Made by a program: the position numbers and the translations under genes. A model generated the notes under the pieces. The model worked only from the letters and a program-made list of their open reading frames with translations, was not told the DNA's origin and did not search any database. This document shows, piece after piece, positions 2,611 to 32,423 of a DNA stretch of 32,423 bases; positions within the stretch are counted from its first letter, which is position 1, and the number at the start of each line of letters is the position of its first letter. The stretch is from a virus (taxonomy: Duplodnaviria > Heunggongvirae > Uroviricota > Caudoviricetes). The stretch is from the IMG/VR virus record IMGVR_UViG_3300045988_079407. One strand, written 5' to 3'.

Positions 2611-3200
2611 TGCATCGGCCCCGTGGTTCCGCCGCTGTCGCCGCGGTGGATATGCTTATCCGTCGATTTGCCATTGATGATGGCATCCGGGGCAGTAATA
2701 TTGCTGTCGAACTGGCTTTTACCTTTAACGCCCAGACCTTTCTGGATCTCAACGTCGCCGGTAAACGTGGTTCTGGGTGTATCAACGGTCATGCTTTCAT
2801 CAGCGTAAATCTCAACCGTTTTACAGGTAATGATGCAGCGCCCGTCCTTTGTCAGCCTGATACGATGCCCCTCGTGGTGGTAAATGCCTGCATCACCCGG
2901 TTCAAGATTTGTCGGGCGGTAGCGGCGGTCTTCCACCACAACGGCAATCCCCTGATCACGTTGTGCACCCACACAGGCAATCAGCGCCTCTGCGCCCGGC
3001 AGAGGAACGCTGAAATGCCCGTAATTTTGCAGGCGCTCCACTTCATCAGATTCCTCATCATCCAGCAGACCGACCTGCAGGTTCTGAACCTTTCGCCCGT
3101 CGTTAATCACGTTAACAACGGCACGCGCAAGCATCAGACGCACACGACGCATCAGCGGTGTCAGCAGGCGGTTCATGGCGGAATCATTTACTCTTTCCAC
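2607..3200 (-). CDS. Baseplate assembly protein V-like spike (Mu gp45-like, 197 aa)
   Basis: Size and position; Gly-rich C-terminus (GDSGGTTGP) typical of P2 gpV-like spike proteins. Confidence 0.7.
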   Translation of the reverse strand: MERVNDSAMNRLLTPLMRRVRLMLARAVVNVINDGRKVQNLQVGLLDDEESDEVERLQNYGHFSVPLPGAEALIACVGAQRDQGIAVVVEDRRYRPTNLEPGDAGIYHHEGHRIRLTKDGRCIITCKTVEIYADESMTVDTPRTTFTGDVEIQKGLGVKGKSQFDSNITAPDAIINGKSTDKHIHRGDSGGTTGPMQ

Positions 3201-4327: not shown

Positions 4328-5807
4328 TAATCACCTCAATACTGACGCCACCGGGAACAAACAACGGGTTGCTGATACCGTTCCTGCGGGCCAGCCGTTG
4401 CCAGTTCCGGCTGTTTCCTGTGTAACGGTACAGGGCCACCATTGCAGGCATCGTCTCCGGCAGGCGGTGCATTTCACTGCCCGCCAGTTGCAGCCCGCGT
4501 TTTTCCAGGTCGGCAACAACCAGCAGACGCAGTTGCGTAAGCTGAACGCTGTCTGTCGAAAAGCCCTGCTCAGATGCCGTCAGAATGACGGTATCCAGTG
4601 CAGCCCCCAGCATGGCGGCTGTTTTTCCGATATCGGACACACTTTCAAATACCGGGGGCGTGGCTGTACCACTGTCTGAAAAGGATACCTGTGAAAAGCC
4701 GCCGTCCGGGGTTATGGCAGTTAACTGTAACTGTCCCTGTGTGACGGTAGCAGATGTGCTGCTGGCCCCGCTGGCTGTGCCGGTTGTGGTGGACGGGGCA
4801 TCCAGTACAGGTGCACGGGCGGCATTATCCATCCGGCGACTGAAATCCAGTGCCGCAGTCAGTGCCTGGCTGGCAGCTTCTGCCCGGTATGTCTGCGCCG
4901 CTGCCAGCATGACGTAGTTCAGTGTGGCAATATTTTTTTCTGCAACCGGACTGTTGTACGAGGTTGTGATTGTCCCCTGTCTGCCTGCGGTGGCGGCATG
5001 GCGACGTTCGAATCGCTGCGCCAGACGGTTCCATGTGGAAAATGCTGTCCGGGTATCGCATAACGATGAAACGCCGGACAGCGCCCCCATCAGCGAGGAG
5101 GCCAGCATGGCAGGCTGGTTAATCAGGCTGGTCACAGAGCCTTTCATCGCAGAAAGCGATCCCATCAGACCGCTGACAGTCTGCGTAACCCCCAGATTGT
5201 CCACCGCATCACTGATATCATCGATGACACCGGTTACAGCTTCCATCACGGCGGTTGCCGCCGCAGTGCCATCTTTTACAGTCTGCCAGACAGAGGACAG
5301 CGTATCTCCCAGAGAACCGGTTACAGCAACGGCCTGTGCCGGTACGGCTGCACTGGTGTCTGTCTCTGCGTCCGGGGCTGTATCCTGCAACGACGGATAA
5401 ACGGTAACGGTGAACGCGTAATAATTCAGTTCATCCGCTTTAGTGCGGCATTCCCATGAATCCACCATGACGTCCACAGTGCCGAAATCAGGATGTACCA
5501 GCTCACCGCTACCCGGAGCATCAAGAGCATCCATCAGCGCACCCGCTTCATCTCTGGCTGTTTCTGCGTTGCTGTTCAGAATGCAGGCGCTGAATGTACG
5601 GGAGCGAAGCTTTTTCCCCAGGTCATTGACGCCGCCGGTATCACGTAACGGGTACTCGCGTTTAACCAGGCGACGTCCGCCAGCCTGTTTTTGCTCCTCG
5701 ATGACGAGAAACGGCACGTTACGGAACGTGCCTTTGCCGGTTGTTTTCCTGCCTCCACCGGTTTTATCCCGGACAGCATTAACGGCATTTAAAGCATCTT
5801 CAAACAT
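4320..5807 (-). CDS. N: DNA circularization protein N-like tail protein (495 aa)
   Basis: 495 aa, immediately downstream of the tape measure gene, as in Mu. Confidence 0.75.
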
Positions 5808-11959: not shown

Positions 11960-12877
11960 TTACAGGTAGTCAGCGACAACCAGTTGCAGCTTGCCCTTCA
12001 TCTCGTTGGAGACGGTGGTATTGCCATCCGCGAACAGTTCACGGTTAAGCAGTTGCTCTGCGGCTTTTTCCAGCCCGACCGGTACAACGATATGCGTCGG
12101 CTTCAGGCCCAGTTTCTTACCGCCATCACCTTCAAAAGAGCGCATCAGTTGCCAGCCCTTCCAGAGGTTATCCAGCGTCAGATCGCCTTTTACCGCGACA
12201 GCCATCTGCCAGAAGCCGTAACCGGCAGCACGCCGGGCGCTGGCACCAAACAGGAACTCGTTATCCATAAAAACGTGGTCGTCATCGATACGGGTACGTG
12301 CGACCAGTTCCGGTTTGCGGCGCTCCTGGAAAATCAGCGGTTTGACTGCGCGGGAGCAGTCCAGCAGATAGAATGGCAGACCGCTGAAGCTGTCCTGCTC
12401 AACGATGTTGGAGGTATTAACCGCGCTGCCCGTGCCATCCACATTCGGATATACCGGATGCTCCTTGTCGAAGAAGTTCTGACCGTCATAGCAGGGCTGG
12501 GTAAAGCCATCTTTCAGAAGTTTAAAAATCAGCTCATCCGGCTGAACTGCCGCAGAACGGCCCATCTCCTGAAAAATCGGCGCATAAATACCCAGATTGT
12601 CATCCTCGAAGTCATCACGGGAAATACCCACGGTGCCTTCAAACGTTTTATTGGCGATGGAGTAGCCATGCGCTTCCATTTGCTGAATGGTTCGCTTACC
12701 CACCCATTCTTTCAGGGTCGGGAATTTACCCAGCCAGCCATAGGTATTACTGCGGGTGGAAGAGTTCACCACCATTGCAATTTTGTTGTACTGCGACGGG
12801 GCGTCTTCAAGACCGCCCTGAAAATCCTTACGCCAGGAGGTCATCAGGGCTTTAATGGATGCCGGGGTGACAATCAT
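11960..12877 (-). CDS. T: Major head (capsid) protein (305 aa)
   Basis: 305 aa immediately downstream of the protease/scaffold gene; matches Mu T in size and order. Confidence 0.9.
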   Translation of the reverse strand: MIVTPASIKALMTSWRKDFQGGLEDAPSQYNKIAMVVNSSTRSNTYGWLGKFPTLKEWVGKRTIQQMEAHGYSIANKTFEGTVGISRDDFEDDNLGIYAPIFQEMGRSAAVQPDELIFKLLKDGFTQPCYDGQNFFDKEHPVYPNVDGTGSAVNTSNIVEQDSFSGLPFYLLDCSRAVKPLIFQERRKPELVARTRIDDDHVFMDNEFLFGASARRAAGYGFWQMAVAVKGDLTLDNLWKGWQLMRSFEGDGGKKLGLKPTHIVVPVGLEKAAEQLLNRELFADGNTTVSNEMKGKLQLVVADYL

Positions 12878-13959
12878 TTTTCTTGTTCCTGTTTCATTTT
12901 CAGATACTCAGCCTCTGTAATGCCGAGCGCCTTCACTGCTGCCTGTTCATCAGCAGACAGCACCGCCACCGCCGTTTTTTCTTGCGACGGGATTTTCGCT
13001 GTGGTGGTCTGCATGGCAGATAACGCAGCGATAGGCTGTTTTTTCTCAAGCTGTGCCGACAGTGCCGCCACGCCAATCTGACCGCCAAGCTGTTCCAGAT
13101 AGGTACGTTCGCTTTTGAAAATGCGGCCTTCCTGTTCCGCCTTGTCCAGAACGGCGCTCAGGCTGGCTGTGGCGCTTTGTGCAGTCGCCTGTGCCAGTTC
13201 ATCACGCAGGGCGTTGTAGCTTTCCACCGGGACGTATTTCGTCAGGTCAACGGCGGCTTTCTGTGCCTTTTCCAGTTCGGCAGACAACGCCGCCACTTTC
13301 CCGGCATTAATTTCCAGCGTGTCCAGCGCGGTCAGTGCCGCTGTTGCCTGTTCATCGGTGATGTCTGCATTTTCGGGGACAGTCACCCCAAGACGCGCAA
13401 GCAGCTTGCGCAGCGTTTCATTCATGGGTTTGTTCTCCTGTTGAAGGATGTCGGGAAGGTCTGCCGCCAGTGCGGTCAGCTTTTTCATGCCGGTGGCACC
13501 GGGGTCATTGGTCAGCGCAGCAAGGCGGATTTGCAGCACTGCACCGGTGGCGGTGTCATACGGAAAAACCGCAGAGAGATAACCAAATTCGCCGTCATCG
13601 ATGCGCTGCTGGGCCGCCGCCGTCCAGCGTGGGTGGATAAATAACCCTTCACCTTCACGCCACTGCATTTCATCGGCGTTAAACCAGCCAGCCGCGACGA
13701 GTTGTTCCGGGGGTAATCCTTTGTCCTTACGTAGCTGGTTATGCTCGTAATCAATCAGCACGTCTTGGTTGAGCGCGCGAACGCCTTCAACCAGACGCCC
13801 GGCAATCTCACCGTCGATGAACCACCCCTGACCGCCTGTCACATCAAACGGACGACCATCACGGGCACTGAAATGACCGGCAGGCAATAGCTGGCACCAG
13901 CCGTCATCGTCAATGGACAGCGCACTCAGTGCGGCAATGCCAATCGCGTGTTTTTTCAT
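12874..13959 (-). CDS. I: Head maturation protease/scaffold protein (361 aa)
   Basis: 361 aa with an N-terminal protease-like region and an Ala/Glu/Gln-rich helical C-terminal half (scaffold, the Mu Z region); matches Mu I. Confidence 0.85.
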   Translation of the reverse strand: MKKHAIGIAALSALSIDDDGWCQLLPAGHFSARDGRPFDVTGGQGWFIDGEIAGRLVEGVRALNQDVLIDYEHNQLRKDKGLPPEQLVAAGWFNADEMQWREGEGLFIHPRWTAAAQQRIDDGEFGYLSAVFPYDTATGAVLQIRLAALTNDPGATGMKKLTALAADLPDILQQENKPMNETLRKLLARLGVTVPENADITDEQATAALTALDTLEINAGKVAALSAELEKAQKAAVDLTKYVPVESYNALRDELAQATAQSATASLSAVLDKAEQEGRIFKSERTYLEQLGGQIGVAALSAQLEKKQPIAALSAMQTTTAKIPSQEKTAVAVLSADEQAAVKALGITEAEYLKMKQEQEK

Positions 13960-14155
13960 GTCCTGCTGCTCATCATGGTTTGTGAGCAGTCAGTTTGCGG
14001 GAGGTGCGGGAAAATCTGGGGTTATGCTATTTGAGTAATGGAGAAAGAAAGTGGAAGGAAGATAAAACGGGATTCATACACCGTTAAATACCGGTTTAAA
14101 AATCCCGTGGCGCGTTTTAAAAAATCTGTGCGGCTGATTTCATGTCTGATTCAGT
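13960..14155 (-). promoter_or_regulatory. Central G-I intergenic region: expected site of the Mu strong gyrase site and the C-dependent late promoter for I
   Basis: 196-bp non-coding, AT-rich gap between G and I, about 18.2-18.4 kb from the left end, i.e. the genome centre, where the Mu strong gyrase site is described. Confidence 0.55.
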
Positions 14156-14626
14156 TTATTGCCTCAGAGCGGCGCTGACGCGTTTTCTGATGGCATCAAA
14201 AATTTCCTGTTCCCCGGTCTTATCCAGCCCCATATAAGGACGCGCAGGAACGCCTGCCGGGCGGGGTGCCATATCGGGTGTACCGCCCCACTGATGAATG
14301 GCAGCATAAATTTTTGGCGAACCAATCAGGGCATAATCCTGTCCATAATCGGTGGTAATGCTGCGTGCCAGATCGCCATGCAGGGTAAGGATACTGCCCG
14401 GAACAAAACCATGATCCTGACGCCATGCCTGCCACGAATCGCTCCACGCTTCCCAGCCTTTCCCTGTATCCGGGTCTGCCTGCCGTTCAAATGCCTGTTC
14501 CGTGGATGACAGCAGCGCCGCAGCCATCACACGGGGAATGGCGCGGTCACGTGTAACGGTTCCCAGTTCATCCAGTGCAAGCTGAATACGTCGCACATCC
14601 ACGGCAACGTTCATATCAAGACTCAC
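14156..14626 (-). CDS. G: Virion morphogenesis protein G-like (156 aa)
   Basis: 156 aa, overlaps the F gene end by 4 nt; synteny. Confidence 0.75.
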   Translation of the reverse strand: MSLDMNVAVDVRRIQLALDELGTVTRDRAIPRVMAAALLSSTEQAFERQADPDTGKGWEAWSDSWQAWRQDHGFVPGSILTLHGDLARSITTDYGQDYALIGSPKIYAAIHQWGGTPDMAPRPAGVPARPYMGLDKTGEQEIFDAIRKRVSAALRQ

Positions 14627-17461: not shown

Positions 17462-19116
17462 TACCAGCCCCCTCGTTCAAACTGGTGATAATCATCAAAA
17501 TCATCGTTATCAACATCATCACCACGGTGGCGTGGTGGCAGCGCCTGTATGCTGTCCTCGTCGATAACAAAACCATTCATATAAGACGCCCTGACAGCCA
17601 TACAGAGCGCCACGGCAAAGTCGCCATGCCGTCGGCCTTTACCACCTTCATCTTTTGTGCGCCCCTTATCAATCTGCGGAATACCTTTGTCCACCTTGAT
17701 GTGGAGCAGGTCATCAAGAGTGGTCTGGTGCCGGGCAATCGTGATGTTCTGCGCTTCAAACTCGCCTTTCAGTTTTGGCATCCACTCCTGATACCAGGAT
17801 GCGGTCAGATTCACACAGTCGATCATCTCCGGGCCATAAATCAGACGGGCGGCTTCTGCCAGATAACCGCCGTTACCGGTGGCATCAAATGCAGCGCCGG
17901 TAAAACGGGGCAAACGGGACAGAATGAATAAAAGGATTTGTCGCTGCTGGTCATAGGTCACATTACGCAGCTCCACGCGGAAACATTCGCGTTTGCGTAA
18001 GTCAGGAGTGATGGCAAGCGGAACAAACACCGTCAGGTCGCCACGGCGTGCAAAGTCTTCGCCCAGTACGTGTTTATTGAGCGGCGACAGCGCATCGAGC
18101 AACGGGAGCAGCTCCTGTTCACACCAGTCCTGAACGATGCCGTGGCGCATTTGTGGTGTCAGCGATTCAAAATCGTCCGGGGCTTCAAAACGCAGAATCG
18201 GGATATCCCGCGCTGGCGTCATGGCGGCTTCAATCAGCACGCGTGACAGATAAGCGCCCCCGGATTTTTTAGGAATGCAGCCGTATTCCTCGTCGGCACT
18301 CTCTTTATTCGGCGCATTCCGGTACAGGCCATCACGCCAGGCTTTTTCCGCTTCCGGCGACCACGGCTGATTCGTGACGTAACAGATACGTCGGTACAAC
18401 CCGTCAGCGATGGCATCATCCAGCGTGATGCGGTGAACGCTGTAATCCTTGCGCCCCTCGCGCGCATCCTGAATGTACTGGTTAAACAGGTTATCGACGC
18501 CGTTATGTGTCGATATGATCCGCACGCGGGCACCCCACATGGTGAGAGCAAAGGCCGCTTTCAGGAGTTCGTCCAGGGCTTCATGAAATGCCGCCTCATC
18601 AATCACCACGTCCCCCTGCAAACCACGCAGGTTAGACGGACGGCTTGACAGCGCCTGCACCTTAAATCCGCTGTTAGGGAAACGGATCATATAAGTGAGG
18701 ATTTCTTCTTTTTTGTCGCTGTCCCAGAAGGTCTGCTCCCAGACATCAGCCTTTGCCAGCTGGTTAAAGGCGCGGGCAAACAGGGCACAGGCGGCGATAT
18801 ATTCCAGCGCCATTTCCTGACGGGAACCCACATAAAAGACGTTGCGACCGCCACGGCGGCGCGGCTTTGCTGCCGTCATGACATTGCGGCCCGCTTCGGC
18901 CCATGTCAGACCGGTACGACGGGATTTTTCAGCGATGCAAATCTGGCTTTCATCCTCAAACCAGCGGCGCTGATAACCCAGGAAAACCGGTTCATTGCGG
19001 GGCTGTGCTTCACCGATATCGGTCACGATATTCACGCCGAGCAGTTCGGCTTCCTCACGCAGGTTGATTTTGCGGGGCGCATGAAGGGCTTTAAGGTTGT
19101 TTTCTCTGGTGTTCAT
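17461..19116 (-). CDS. E: Terminase large subunit (551 aa)
   Basis: ATG at 19116 (MNTRENNLKAL) with a GAGGG Shine-Dalgarno in the 7-nt gap after the upstream stop. The 615-aa track ORF is an upstream extension that overlaps the preceding gene. Confidence 0.85.
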   Translation of the reverse strand: MNTRENNLKALHAPRKINLREEAELLGVNIVTDIGEAQPRNEPVFLGYQRRWFEDESQICIAEKSRRTGLTWAEAGRNVMTAAKPRRRGGRNVFYVGSRQEMALEYIAACALFARAFNQLAKADVWEQTFWDSDKKEEILTYMIRFPNSGFKVQALSSRPSNLRGLQGDVVIDEAAFHEALDELLKAAFALTMWGARVRIISTHNGVDNLFNQYIQDAREGRKDYSVHRITLDDAIADGLYRRICYVTNQPWSPEAEKAWRDGLYRNAPNKESADEEYGCIPKKSGGAYLSRVLIEAAMTPARDIPILRFEAPDDFESLTPQMRHGIVQDWCEQELLPLLDALSPLNKHVLGEDFARRGDLTVFVPLAITPDLRKRECFRVELRNVTYDQQRQILLFILSRLPRFTGAAFDATGNGGYLAEAARLIYGPEMIDCVNLTASWYQEWMPKLKGEFEAQNITIARHQTTLDDLLHIKVDKGIPQIDKGRTKDEGGKGRRHGDFAVALCMAVRASYMNGFVIDEDSIQALPPRHRGDDVDNDDFDDYHQFERGGW

Positions 19117-21538: not shown

Positions 21539-21609
21539 GCTTCCCTGAAAAAATGCTCTGATGGCAGTCTAAAAAATCAGATGGCAGGTGCGGGATTATG
21601 GTGACAGGA

Positions 21610-21634
21610 AATAACCGGCAGGATGCCGGTTATT
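21610..21634 (-). terminator. Hairpin (11-bp perfect stem, 3-nt loop) overlapping the C stop codon; candidate terminator of the middle transcript
   Basis: aataaccggca-gga-tgccggttatt; the C stop (21630..21632) lies inside the 3' arm. It lies upstream of the expected C-dependent lys promoter at 21539..21629. Confidence 0.5.
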
Positions 21635-22052
21635 TCTGGCTTTCAGGTGAGAACAGATCAGGCTGATGACGTCGTGTATGCAGCTTTCTCTGGCTGGCAA
21701 TAATCTGGTAGATCTGCGGCTGGGACAGGCGATACTGGCGACGCAGTTCTTCCATGTTACGACCATTGAACTGGCAGTAAAGCAAATCGTCGCGTAACGC
21801 GGTCAGGATCGTATCGCCGCAGGGGATGTAAAACTGCCGTCCACCCAGAAAACAGGACAGGGCAACGGCCTGTTTACGGGCAAGCTCACGGGGATTGCTG
21901 ACGTTCTGGCGTTTCAGTTCGTTTTCCAGAACATCAATCAGATCAACCACCGAACGGGGCCAGCGTGATTCCAGTTCCGGGGCCGGGATGTTATCAATAT
22001 GTCCGATTAACTGGCGAATTGCCGGATCGTGTTCAAATAAATCATGCTGCAT
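21630..22052 (-). CDS. C: Late transcription activator C (140 aa)
   Basis: 140 aa; Mor/C family with a C-terminal HTH-like region (RRQYRLSQPQIYQIIA); located just before lys. Confidence 0.85.
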   Translation of the reverse strand: MQHDLFEHDPAIRQLIGHIDNIPAPELESRWPRSVVDLIDVLENELKRQNVSNPRELARKQAVALSCFLGGRQFYIPCGDTILTALRDDLLYCQFNGRNMEELRRQYRLSQPQIYQIIASQRKLHTRRHQPDLFSPESQK

Positions 22053-22164: not shown

Positions 22165-22395
22165 TCACTGAATTTTCTGTACATGGTATTTTTCTCTGTA
22201 GCGCCGGCAATGGTGGATAATTTCTGGCATATCAACGGACTGCCAGCCTTTCATGTAATAACTTCCGTGGGTGCCATCGTGCCCTGTGTAATCCATTGGC
22301 TTTGGTGGCGGGCCTCCGGCCTCCCGATGTAATACCTCCTGTCGTAAACGTTCACGCCTGCCGAACTGAAAGGACGCATCCCACCCTTTACCCAT
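22165..22395 (-). CDS. Hypothetical protein (76 aa from the ATG at 22395)
   Basis: The ATG overlaps the GH108 stop; weak call because its 3' end overlaps the 39-aa ORF at 22065..22184 by 20 nt. Confidence 0.3.
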   Translation of the reverse strand: MGKGWDASFQFGRRERLRQEVLHREAGGPPPKPMDYTGHDGTHGSYYMKGWQSVDMPEIIHHCRRYREKYHVQKIQ

Positions 22396-22948
22396 GCAGA
22401 ACCTCCCGACAGGCGCTGGCGAGCAGATCCAGACGGTTAAACCAGCCATTCAGATATTTCCCCTGCGAGGCACTGGATTTGATAATCCCTGCGTAATAGC
22501 GGGAACGACGCAGGAAGCACTGCAACAGCAGCCAGTCAGTATCGGCACGCAGAACGGCTGCGCGTGTGTTTTTACCGACGATGCCATCATCATCAACACC
22601 TGCTGCCGCCTGGAGGATCTGAATCGCGCGTTTAACACCGTGCTGAACGGCAGCATCAAAAACGAATAAGGAAACGCCATCAGGCCATTCGTTACACTTT
22701 GCCGCCAGCCAGTAATCACGCCAGTAGATCTGCGCCGCCTGCTCGCGGGTTAAATCCTTAATGCGGGTATCAGGTTTTCCGTCACCGTTAACATCGGTTT
22801 TGCCATCAATAACACCGTCGCGACGGTCAGAAATACCGTATTTCGTTTCGCCGCCACGGTCGGCAGGATCATTAACATAGCCACCTTCAACATCAGGGCG
22901 TATAACGAAATTCAGCGAATGAAGGAATGCAGGGGAAAACTCAGGCAT
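22388..22948 (-). CDS. Glycoside hydrolase family 108-like muramidase with C-terminal peptidoglycan-binding domain (186 aa)
   Basis: N-terminal signature VEGGYVNDPADRGGETKYGIS (EGGY ... D.GG.T.YGI), followed by a region resembling PG_binding_3; AGGAGGG Shine-Dalgarno upstream. Confidence 0.75.
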   Translation of the reverse strand: MPEFSPAFLHSLNFVIRPDVEGGYVNDPADRGGETKYGISDRRDGVIDGKTDVNGDGKPDTRIKDLTREQAAQIYWRDYWLAAKCNEWPDGVSLFVFDAAVQHGVKRAIQILQAAAGVDDDGIVGKNTRAAVLRADTDWLLLQCFLRRSRYYAGIIKSSASQGKYLNGWFNRLDLLASACREVLHG

Positions 22949-23000
22949 GTTGCCCTCCTGTCATGAACGTTTTATCGTCACAACAGAATATTGAGGGCGT

Positions 23001-23968: not shown

Positions 23969-24037
23969 GATCGTACCTCCGGAAAGAGGCGGTGCTGCAA
24001 CACCGCCATATTCAGTAATAACATAAAAGGAAATATT

Positions 24038-24397
24038 ATGGCTGAACAAGAACAACATACAGTGTCGGATGATGAACAAAACCCAGATTTCGAAACAAAC
24101 CAGAAAGACACCCCTGTTAATAACCAGGATAAATTCTTTGGTATAACCGGTTTTATGCTGGTCGGTAATCTGATGATTAAGCTGATTGAAAACGGTGTTA
24201 TCAACATGCACGATGCTTATGACATCATCAGAAATACACAGGCCAGCTATAAGAACCGAAAAACGTTCGAAGAACTGGATTTTGAGGCCGATGAGTATGT
24301 TGATCTGCTGCTCAATAAGCTCTGGGCTTCAAGGCAGGATATTGTTAATGCCGGGAACCTCTCATCAGAGCACACAGATACTGACGCTGTGGAATAA
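24038..24397 (+). CDS. Hypothetical acidic protein (119 aa), opposite strand to the early operon; candidate moron
   Basis: ATG at 24038 with AAAGGA 7-8 nt upstream; strongly acidic with one hydrophobic stretch (FFGITGFMLVGNLMIKLI); about 40% G+C by hand count over the first 60 nt. The only plus-strand ORF here that does not overlap a confident minus-strand gene over most of its length. Confidence 0.5.
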   Translation: MAEQEQHTVSDDEQNPDFETNQKDTPVNNQDKFFGITGFMLVGNLMIKLIENGVINMHDAYDIIRNTQASYKNRKTFEELDFEADEYVDLLLNKLWASRQDIVNAGNLSSEHTDTDAVE

Positions 24398-24635
24398 CCG
24401 CTGAATCATCAACGCCAAGCTCACGACAAACAATATTGTTGTGGGCTTTTTTGTTATGCAACAAAACTTCGTCGCGTATGAGATGAATTTCCCGTGTCAT
24501 AATTTCAAGGGCCTCTCTCGCAGAAAAGCCTTTACTGATTGCAGTCTCAATAACATCGCGCATACGCTCAAGCATCTTAGCTTTCACCAGTTCTTCATCC
24601 AGGTCTTTAGGCGTAAATTTAGTTTCATTATTCAT
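24345..24635 (-). CDS. Hypothetical early protein (96 aa from the ATG at 24635)
   Basis: ATG (MNNETKF) with an AAGGTG Shine-Dalgarno; the upstream stop sits 2 nt away; helical charged protein. Its 3' end overlaps the plus-strand ORF by 53 nt. Confidence 0.5.
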   Translation of the reverse strand: MNNETKFTPKDLDEELVKAKMLERMRDVIETAISKGFSAREALEIMTREIHLIRDEVLLHNKKAHNNIVCRELGVDDSAVIPQRQYLCALMRGSRH

Positions 24636-27228: not shown

Positions 27229-27248
27229 TGTCAGCGTTCCTTTGCGAA

Positions 27249-27518
27249 TTAATGTTTAACCGCATTCACCGGATGTGGTACTAAATCACATTCAGCCTCC
27301 ATACCCACTTTCTTCATAGTGGTCAGCATCTCATCTTTGGCCTTTTTAATAATTTCAGGAGCCATAGTCAGGACGATATTTGCCAGTAAATCATGAGGTC
27401 CGGTATTTTCCGTTGGCGAGATATCTGCAAGACATGCTTTTGCATCCAGAACTTCTCTGCGCCCATTGCAACCTTCACTACTTTCCAGCCATGTAAACTC
27501 AAAGATAACTTTTGCCAT
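27249..27518 (-). CDS. Hypothetical early protein (89 aa)
   Basis: ORF in the track in the semi-essential region. Confidence 0.45.
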   Translation of the reverse strand: MAKVIFEFTWLESSEGCNGRREVLDAKACLADISPTENTGPHDLLANIVLTMAPEIIKKAKDEMLTTMKKVGMEAECDLVPHPVNAVKH

Positions 27519-28982: not shown

Positions 28983-30980
28983 TTAAATGGCTTTTTTACG
29001 TCTGTTCTGTTCCAGAATATCCAGCGAATGATTCAGATATTCATCACGCTCAGTTTCGTATTCATCATCACGCTCCTGATTCTTCACTCGTTCCGTATTA
29101 CCGGAAGGCCGGAAAATGCCGACAATTCGTGATTCTGGTGCTTCAGGTTCGGCTATCTGCGGCAGCAGCTCTGCCACTTCCAGTGCATCCATTTGTTTCT
29201 GTGCCTTAATTGCTGCTTTCGTCGCAGATTTCAGTTGTTTCTGGCGGCGGCGATATTCACGGCCTGCCGCAGCATCATTAAACGCAACAGGTGCCAGACA
29301 TTCCGCTTCACAGATAAACCGACCGTCCAGGGTGTAGCAATAAACCGTGCTGTGTAACTGCTGTGGATCAAATCTGACCACAACTTTTTTCACTCCGGCA
29401 TTCATTAACGCCATGTTGTAATAAACGTTTTTCGCACCTTTAAGGGAGCCACCAACTTTAAGCGCGAACTCGCCTTTACGTGAAACGTTCACTGCCTCGG
29501 CAGGCAGTAACAGCATCCGTTTTTGCTCTTCGGTAGGCTTACGCACAATCGTTCTGGCGTATTCACGCTCAAAAACGTCATCAAACGAAAGTTTGCCTCC
29601 GCACATTTCTGTTTCACGGCCTGTTCTGGCATTGAACATCGCCACACCTTCGGCAAGGGTTTTCAGAAACAGCTCTGCATCAACAGCGCGGTCGCCATAG
29701 TTATCAGGTTTTGCCTGCGGATTAGGCCCCGTATATGCGCCAGCCAGTGCCGGATGCTTATCAACGTATTCCTCAAGCCCACCAACACCGAAAGCACGTT
29801 CAACAGGTTTTGCCTGGCCCCAGCCTTTACCGGCAACAACGCTTGTCCAGTGCATTTTCGCCCCCATCAGTAAAAACAGTCCTTTTGGATCGTCCTCTTT
29901 TACCTTAAAGCGGTAGCGATTGGGCGCGCCTCCCGTCAGCCATTTATTCGCAGCACCACGGGTGTTATCAATGGTGATGTGAAAATCCTCCGGGATACCG
30001 TAGCGAGTCACAACATCCATGAACGAGAGGCGAATTGAATCAATGTTCTCGCTCACATCGCAGCGCCAGCCCAGAATTTTTCGGGTTTTCACATCCTGCC
30101 AGAACCATGTTTTCGGACGGATCACATCACCGTTAAACCAGCGTACAAAGACGTTATGCAGATAACCGTCGCCGTTGATCCACTGCATGGCGTCCAGGTG
30201 TTCCACAGTTCGCTGCTGTGCCGGTATCAGATGCATCAGTGCATGTTCACCTTCACGACAGGCAACAACCATTGCCTCGTCCAGTTGCTGAATCCGGCGA
30301 AAGGCCGTGGCACGGGAGGGAATACTCCAGCCATGCTCGCGGGCTGCCAGTTCCAGACGCTCATAACATTTGCGGAAGGCGGGTTTTTCCGGTCGCAGAT
30401 AATCTGCAATCAGAAACTGCCAGGCATCCTCGTCAAATTCACTTTTGTGAACGTTGCGACGGGATGCACCACGTCCATCAACAAGCGCAGCCGCCCAGTC
30501 AGGCTTCGCAAACTTCTGTACCTGGTAATACTTGTCCCGCAAAGTGGATGCGCTGACCTGGTAATGCCCTGCAACGGTCGCAAAAGCCGTTTTTGTTGAA
30601 ATCCCCTGGTTCAGCATTTCGTCTGCAGCCTGAACCGCAGGCAACCATTTTTCAGCAAGTCTGCGCTGGGAATCGCTGGCGTTATCCCATTTGCTCCACA
30701 GCACCTCACGATCATAATCATGGGCTTCCAGCGTGGGGCGGGCGATTTCAAAATACCCCTGGCTTGTTTCTATTTGCTCAGATTTTAATAACAACTCAGC
30801 ACGTGCTGCCGCTGGCAGAACTGATATATGAAATTCCAAAGCCTTTGAACCCGTACGCTTGCGACGTAGTTCTGGATGATTGGCTGCAAGCTTTTCAAGA
30901 TTGCGGCGAATACTCACCTCATGTTTAGGAAAGCATGACATTCCTACGCATTCTTGCGCTGTTACCCAATGGGTTAACAT
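28983..30980 (-). CDS. A: DDE transposase MuA (665 aa from the ATG at 30980)
   Basis: ATG at 30980 ([11 protein letters not shown]) with a GGAG Shine-Dalgarno 8 nt upstream; the track's longer form starts at a TTG. The core closely matches Mu A as I recall it, but the N-terminal DNA-binding domain differs. Confidence 0.95.
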
Positions 30981-31201
30981 GATGTTTTCTCCATATACCG
31001 AGAAGGCCAAATCTGGGCTGGTTCCATATCCAAATATCTAGCAATGATTGCTTCGTATCGTGGTATATGGCAGCGAAATACGTTACGCATAGTGTCAGGC
31101 TTTAAGCCTGCCTCTCTGGATAATTGAGATAGTGTCTTCCCCTTCATACGAACAGCAGCCTTTATCTGCTCTGCGTGCCAGTCTTGGTTTTTTGCTGACA
31201 T
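30974..31201 (-). CDS. ner: Ner-like transcriptional regulator (75 aa)
   Basis: 75 aa, Ner/Nlp family (conserved IWPSRY); AAGGA Shine-Dalgarno; first gene of the early operon, divergent from the repressor. Confidence 0.85.
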
Positions 31202-31370
31202 TCTGCGATCCTTACTTTCTTAACGTTTTCGGTAACTGATACCGGCTACCGCTATCGGGAAAAACGATAGCGCAGAAAAATGCGCATTTCAAGAGCTATG
31301 CGCATTTTTATTTTAACCAATGCAAATCAAAGCATTCTGTAAAATTCTTTATATAACAGAGAGATTGAGC
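31202..31370. promoter_or_regulatory. Divergent early/repressor promoter-operator region (Pe/Pc with operators; expected site of the transposition enhancer)
   Basis: Inverted repeat cgctatcg-ggaaaa-cgatagcg (31250..31271) and two ATGCGCAT palindromes (31278..31289 as aaatgcgcattt; 31298..31305), 18 bp centre to centre; located between ner and c. Confidence 0.7.
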
Positions 31371-31979
31371 ATGACAGGTGAAAAAGAAAGCAAAAATGCA
31401 GAGCGCATTTTTATGCCATCTGAAATAATGCGTTTCAAGGAACGCCTTGAAGAGGCAATGAATGGAGAATCAAGCCGGGCGTTTGCAGCTAAGTGCGGAC
31501 TCTCTGATGGGGTTATCAGAAACTACCTGTCTGGCAAGACATACCCGTCTTTAGATCGATTAGCACAAATAGCCTACGCAACAGGGCGTCCAATAGAGTG
31601 GTTTATCCAAAGTCAGAGCATGCCAATGGTTGAGCATAAAAATACTCAAGAGAATAAAAATCCTCAACCTGACCGCAGCACATTGAAAACTAAACTGATC
31701 GCAATTGTCGAATTGTTAGAGGACAAGGAACTGCATTCTGCGATTGAGTTGTTCAGAAAGAAAGGATTTGAAGCTCTTATGCCTGAGATTTTTTCTTCCG
31801 ATGATTCCATCCAGGCTAATTTGCAAGGTATTTCGCAACAAACCTTACAAACAGCCAAAATGCTTGAATCATTACCAACAGATACTCGTAAAGAGATTTT
31901 GTCAAAGTATGGTATTTATGAACAGGAAGGTCTTGTAGCTCCTTCACAAGAACCACAAGATGTAAAAAAAGCCGTATAA
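31371..31979 (+). CDS. c: Mu-type repressor c (about 202 aa from the ATG at 31371)
   Basis: Transcribed away from the early operon. The C-terminus (KEILSKYGIYEQEGLVAPSQEPQDVKKAV) resembles the Mu repressor tail as I recall it; the N-terminal DNA-binding domain differs. Start could also be 31320 or the later MPSEIMRF. Confidence 0.8.
   Translation: MTGEKESKNAERIFMPSEIMRFKERLEEAMNGESSRAFAAKCGLSDGVIRNYLSGKTYPSLDRLAQIAYATGRPIEWFIQSQSMPMVEHKNTQENKNPQPDRSTLKTKLIAIVELLEDKELHSAIELFRKKGFEALMPEIFSSDDSIQANLQGISQQTLQTAKMLESLPTDTRKEILSKYGIYEQEGLVAPSQEPQDVKKAV

Positions 31980-32145: not shown

Positions 32146-32423
<278 letters not shown>

Follow-up and report, generated by a model that had tools for sequence, protein, structure and literature searches.

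[quoted passage not shown] No gyrase site stronger than the Mu SGS is known, and studies of gyrase mechanics and structure use it as their standard substrate; the site is also the textbook example of a mobile element that recruits a host topoisomerase to join its distant ends. A first-pass annotation of the window (by which we mean the whole 32,423-nucleotide stretch of DNA analyzed here) had assigned both the gyrase site and the C-dependent promoter of I to this interval. Based on alignment with the mapped elements of Mu, we consider it very probable that the interval is the G-I region of a Mu-type prophage, packing an SGS, a probable terminator and the late promoter P_I into 196 bp. The element is already known: it is the Mu SGS, accompanied by a probable terminator behind G and by the late promoter P_I, in the allelic form of D108 and Mu_3F6.

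We find a Mu-type prophage in the window, reverse-complemented with respect to the Mu reference and with about 98% identity to Mu, D108 and Mu_3F6. Its late genes (about 22 kb) align to Mu as a single block at 98.3% identity. A 1.3-kb query spanning the G-I interval matched 13 phage records at 98.8-99.5% identity, including Mu, D108, SfMu, Mu_3F6, PhiR68_1 and several Yersinia Mu-like phages; locus-wide, identity to Mu, D108, SfMu and Mu_3F6 is 98-99%. The true Mu left end, which starts TGTATTGATTC... (also given as TGTATTGATTCACTTG...), lies at window position 32317 and not at the window edge. The 106 bp beyond it (32318-32423) are host DNA of E. coli type, matched in 5,405 of 5,426 E. coli genomes. 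The exact prophage insertion is absent from the complete E. coli genomes, in which the host flank and the prophage match only separately. At the other extremity, positions 1-61 match Mu 34977-35037 in an orientation opposite to that of the remaining window, which places the invertible G segment in the flipped (G-) orientation with respect to Mu. Position 1 lies within this segment, and the right end of the prophage (gin, com, mom and attR) falls outside it. Blocks without a megablast match to Mu are found at 30774-31889, 27244-27507, 24008-24612 and 22188-22982; these mosaic blocks cover the immunity region (c, ner and the start of A), gp7, gp14/gp54 and gp18-19, and the immunity block is closest to prophages in E. 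coli SE11 and N1286.

The reading frames of G and I leave exactly positions 13960-14155 between them, a gap of 196 bp that has the same length in Mu. As the first-pass annotation had described, the gap is non-coding and AT-rich: no minus-strand open reading frame of at least 20 amino acids with a canonical start lies within it, and its GC content is 0.44 versus about 0.55-0.58 in the flanks. It had also been singled out as the only sizeable gap of the late region. When all Mu genes are placed on the window and the late-region gaps are sized accordingly, the G-I gap is indeed the largest, followed by C-lys (94 bp) and T-gp35 (66 bp); the gp41-gp42 gap measures 144 bp, but shrinks to 14 bp if the frameshift product is taken into account. 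The same annotation had put the gap 18.2-18.4 kb from the left end: the location holds, but the figure is about 0.1 kb too high, as the distance from the true left end is actually 18,163-18,358 bp for the gap and 18,179-18,182 bp for the cleavage position discussed below. In Mu, D108, Mu_3F6 and the prophage of E. coli FDAARGOS_1058, the site sits at 48-49% of a 36.2-37.2 kb element; since the right end is outside our window, the centrality of the present site is taken from these relatives only. Table 1 lists the features of the locus.

Table 1. Features placed in and around the G-I gap, with window positions, the corresponding Mu positions and the source of each assignment
Feature	Window position	Strand	Mu position	Source or remark
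Gene G (gp31)	14156-14626	-		98.9% DNA identity to Mu G
Gene I (gp32)	12874-13959	-		99.1% DNA identity to Mu I
Mu gyrase cut site			17879^17880	GenBank annotation (AF083977), in the homologous 196 bp
SGS left arm (-65 to -26)	14163..14202	-		Mu anatomy (PMC6463007); inside the 3' end of G
SGS gate (G) segment (-25 to +25)	14113..14162	-	17853-17902	PMC6463007 and alignment
SGS right arm (+26 to +85)	14053..14112	-		PMC6463007 and alignment; reported essential
Four-base gyrase cleavage stagger	14136..14139	GATT plus, AATC minus		By homology
Terminator-like hairpin, ACGGGATT...AATCCCGT then UUUAUCUU	14059..14108	-		RNA fold; predicted
Mu TransTermHP terminator			17908-17953	Predicted in the Mu record
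C-dependent late promoter P_I	13972..14038	-	17977-18043	Mu late promoter (PMID 2522923)
Ribosome-binding site of I	13969-13971	-	18044-18046	Bases identical to Mu
ATG start of I	13957-13959	-	18056	Bases identical to Mu
D108 '31.5' frame, 42 codons	14022-14150	-		Related-record annotation
Mu_3F6 46-aa antisense ORF	14038-14178	+		Related-record annotation

Absence of any similarity to the Mu site had been named beforehand as part of what would overturn the gyrase-site assignment. The similarity is almost complete: the gap aligns with Mu 17860-18055 free of insertions or deletions, with 191 of 196 bases identical, and the cut site annotated in Mu falls within the homologous bases. From the cut to +85, right arm included, the window is 100% identical to Mu. 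The core and right arm match over 59 of 59 nucleotides, a string that occurs once in the window with 0 occurrences expected by chance, and the bases of the left arm are also those of Mu. The right arm carries phased T-tracts (TTTTTTAAAA, ATTTTTAAA and TATTTAA). At its other side the SGS is wider than the gap and reaches about 47 bp past the upper gap coordinate, into G.

The first-pass annotation could not pinpoint the cleavage position from the letters at hand; by homology, it can be placed at window 14136-14139. Transfer from Mu predicts scissile bonds at 14135|14136 (plus strand) and 14140|14139 (minus strand). This stagger agrees with the cryoEM of gyrase on the Mu SGS, in which the scissile bonds lie at A/A and 5'-T/GATTT-3' (PMC11626157). 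In addition, the 133-bp Mu SGS fragment with which Topo-Seq was validated (PMC6379681) aligns at window 14071-14203 with four mismatches, and its central GATT falls on the same four bases.

Five substitutions separate the gap from that of Mu. Three are in the gate segment, to the left of the cut, at Mu 17862 (A>T), 17870 (G>A) and 17874 (A>G), which correspond to -16, -8 and -4 from the cleavage center; two lie further downstream (Mu 17961 T>C and 17977 G>T). The three changes left of the cut are precisely those of the allele in D108 and Mu_3F6 (ACTGAATCAGACATGAAATC), and the whole gap is identical to that of Mu_3F6 (LR595867) over 196 of 196 bases.

The clustering of three of these five substitutions within 16 nucleotides of the cleavage site raises another reading, in which the gap serves as transcriptional punctuation only, with a terminator for the lys-G transcript and P_I, the SGS having been weakened or inactivated by the three substitutions. 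Scores computed from sequence features are in keeping with such a reading, as they find the SGS unexceptional. In a Fourier analysis of A/T periodicity (9.5-12 bp), the right arm falls in the 82nd-93rd percentile of all stretches of equal length, and the left arm in the 63rd. When matches to the 133-nucleotide gyrase consensus are counted on both strands, by exact and by strong/weak matching, the SGS ranks 1,424th-9,396th of 64,582 positions (top 2-7%), in a crude count that is a poor proxy for the published weight matrix (Table DS10 of PMC6379681), on which the Mu SGS scored 14.3. A/T periodicity is moderately supportive at best and not diagnostic here, and sequence-only predictors do not single the site out; the SGS is identified through its homology to a site mapped by experiment. 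Against a loss of activity, the right arm and the stagger are unaltered with respect to Mu, and the left side is the part reported to tolerate change: the left arm can be deleted or replaced (PMC10052514; see also PMC6463007, PMC13284261), whereas the right arm is essential (PMC10052514, PMC6463007), its first 40 nucleotides being reported as essential. Furthermore, the same allele is present in many prophages and in D108 and Mu_3F6, whose records are complete phage genomes; that these two phages carry the identical allele makes an inactive SGS very unlikely. A functional SGS is the reading we retain, although its cleavage strength could differ from that of Mu, given the change at Mu 17874, 2 nucleotides from a scissile bond.

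This last position is of interest in its own right. At window 14140, corresponding to Mu 17874, the A>G change is located 2 nucleotides from the top-strand scissile bond, and both the A allele (Mu type, CATAAAATC) and the G allele (D108 type, CATGAAATC) are common in natural relatives. The G at Mu 17874 mirrors, about the center of the stagger, the change at Mu 17881 that is found in the 'Mu SGS' fragment derived from pMP1000 and is the single base separating this fragment from wild-type Mu; each of the two changes puts a G 2 nucleotides 5' of a scissile bond. pMP1000 is described as bearing a nuB up-mutation of the gyrase site. The exact positions of nuB1 and nuB103 come from one figure legend (PMC6463007), whose numbering is shifted by one base against the sequence, so that any link between the present allele and nuB is tentative.

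Downstream of the G stop codon, and overlapping the right arm of the SGS, the minus strand can fold into a terminator-like hairpin with a folding energy of -19.8 kcal/mol (z = -3.3). A simple promoter and terminator scanner found no terminator in the gap; it missed the hairpin because the loop is long. The hairpin and the U-run that follows it probably end the late transcript running from lys to G, as the fold and the prediction in the Mu record suggest. A stable hairpin might also betray a structured non-coding RNA encoded in the gap. We give this reading next to no chance: no Rfam family matches the region (13700-14400, E <= 1), and a hairpin succeeded by a U-run directly past a stop codon has the form of an intrinsic terminator.

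Annotators of related genomes saw yet something else in the same bases and called two small genes, '31.5' in D108 and a 46-amino acid antisense ORF in Mu_3F6, the latter starting with an ATG. The '31.5' frame, however, starts at ATC and is devoid of a canonical start in the window, and no ORF is kept in position, strand or frame between the Mu group and distant relatives; moreover, mapped cis-acting elements already account for the same bases. A protein-coding function for the gap is therefore exceedingly unlikely, and we rejected the small ORFs over the gyrase site as probably spurious calls on cis-acting DNA.

The other half of the gap is occupied by P_I. The first-pass annotation had reasoned that a C-dependent promoter for I must lie here, and the promoter annotated in Mu has its homolog at this place, identical at 66 of 67 positions with a sole mismatch at the 5'-most base. 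Its conserved box, CATAACCCC, is at 14018-14026 and is common to P_lys (window 21546-21612) and P_P (window 4662-4728). The simple scanner reported no sigma-70 consensus promoter in the gap, an expected outcome for an activator-dependent promoter such as P_I. The gene for the activator, C, is itself in the window (21630-22052, minus strand), with 98.3% identity to Mu C.

How is this arrangement kept in other elements? In a comparison of 16 close relatives from IMG/VR with one complete prophage of E. coli, variation is almost confined to the first 16 nucleotides after the G stop, and only two rare variants are observed from the cut through the right arm. This pattern matches the published distinction between a dispensable left arm and an essential right arm. 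In complete E. coli genomes, the gap is present in 41 of 5,426, each time at 97% identity or more. A search for distant versions, using the window gap as a query, returned the same 41 E. coli genomes only and none below 97% identity, and a megablast of the Citrobacter-type gap (L006) against the E. coli genomes gave no match. Neither search recovered the SGS of the Mu-like prophage in O157 Sakai, which reportedly replaces that of Mu functionally. A 36.2-kb Mu-like prophage of E. coli FDAARGOS_1058 (NZ_CP065970, 2669-38869) has the same G-I gap base for base; it sits within yidA, and gyrB of the host is about 1.2 kb away, a proximity that is presumably coincidental.

More distant Mu-like prophages, one of them in Citrobacter braakii (L006), show protein identities of 55-69% for G and 47-68% for I, relatives with 55% for G and 51% for I being among them. 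They retain a G-I gap of 173-197 bp, with T3-6RAA tracts about 31, 52, 64 and 75 nucleotides after the G stop; in the window such tracts are found at 32 and 54 nucleotides, and a less marked tract at 66. They also retain a C-box-like CGCAAACCC at about 133 nucleotides after the G stop, the box of the window being at 130. A hairpin and T-run are present in most of these prophages, L005 and L026 having no convincing one. DNA identity between these prophages and the window has a local peak over the right arm, at 0.57-0.62 versus 0.32-0.45 on either side. No recognizable similarity to the Mu sequence is seen in their gyrase cleavage core. The T-tract/GAA repeats at fixed offsets and the CGCAAACCC box occupy the stretch about 30-135 nucleotides after the G stop in L006, L024-L029 and L005. 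From the comparison of these sequences, the layout of the gap appears to be under selection across the Mu-like group, which fits the published statement that this kind of site occurs in Mu-like prophages (PMC3820752).

In one IMG/VR relative (L023; UViG_2531839192_000008, 2972-3172), the I protein is 97.8% and the G protein 84.6% identical, but identity drops to only about 50% in the gyrase-site half of the gap, where TTTTTGAA occurs as three tracts in phase. The pattern resembles an exchanged SGS allele whose recombination boundary lies close to P_I.

The alleles at Mu 17874 and the layout of distant gaps suggest two modest proposals: that natural Mu-type phages come with two SGS strengths, the D108 type being the stronger, and that functional central gyrase sites exist well beyond the Mu/D108 group. 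We hold these proposals as speculative, rather unlikely as they stand. If true, the layout seen in distant prophages (at about 55% G identity, and including that of Citrobacter braakii) would extend central gyrase sites well beyond Mu and D108.

We may sketch how the interval would act. Binding and cleavage by gyrase and the role in end synapsis are drawn from experiments on Mu; identity and layout are those of the present allele. Host DNA gyrase would bind about 150 bp (approximately window 14053-14202) and cut within the stagger, leaving four-base ends. [quoted passage not shown] Gyrase would then supercoil processively from the central SGS, so that the prophage is extruded as a plectonemic loop with the SGS at its apex; the arms of the loop would align and the left and right ends meet. 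End synapsis would in turn let MuA assemble the transpososome. Deletion of the SGS in Mu delays replication after induction by about 100 minutes (more than 1 h), and a central location is optimal (PMC10052514); the prophage 'Mu domain' also requires the SGS (PMC3820752). On the promoter side, the C protein would activate P_I, leading to transcription of I/Z, T and the downstream head genes.

The prophage thus seems to retain an intact replication-assisting site along with a late-gene control region, and nothing in the interval is new in kind. What is gained is a precise cut coordinate, predicted by homology, the recognition that ORF calls in the gap are probably spurious, and a two-allele polymorphism beside the scissile bond.

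Among known systems, the Mu SGS is the closest: it shares with the window the G-I interval, the 196-bp gap, the distance of about 18 kb from the left end, the cleavage tetranucleotide and the right arm, and it differs by the five substitutions, three of them in the left half of the gate segment. D108 (GQ357916) has the SGS allele of the window and two base differences in the promoter half of the gap; the records of D108 and Mu_3F6 have small hypothetical ORFs within the gap but no SGS annotation. As to the promoter, the other C-activated late promoters of Mu (P_lys, P_P and P_mom) share a CATAA(C/T)CCC box upstream of a poor -35 region, and P_I alone among the Mu late promoters shares its intergenic region with a gyrase site. 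Plasmid sites (pSC101, pBR322) and chromosomal REP/BIME-2 sites are likewise preferred gyrase sites with about 130 bp wrapped (PMC6379681), but their sequences are unrelated to the present one, and plasmid and chromosomal gyrase sites are reported to be unable to replace the Mu SGS in Mu replication (PMC10052514). Finally, a candidate SGS has been proposed in the Pseudomonas transposable phage Ab30, a phage of about 37 kb, where it is central, intergenic and placed at the putative apex of a supercoiled loop (PMC5977238); this candidate was deduced only from a 37-bp insertion-free segment, and it resembles the site described here in its position.
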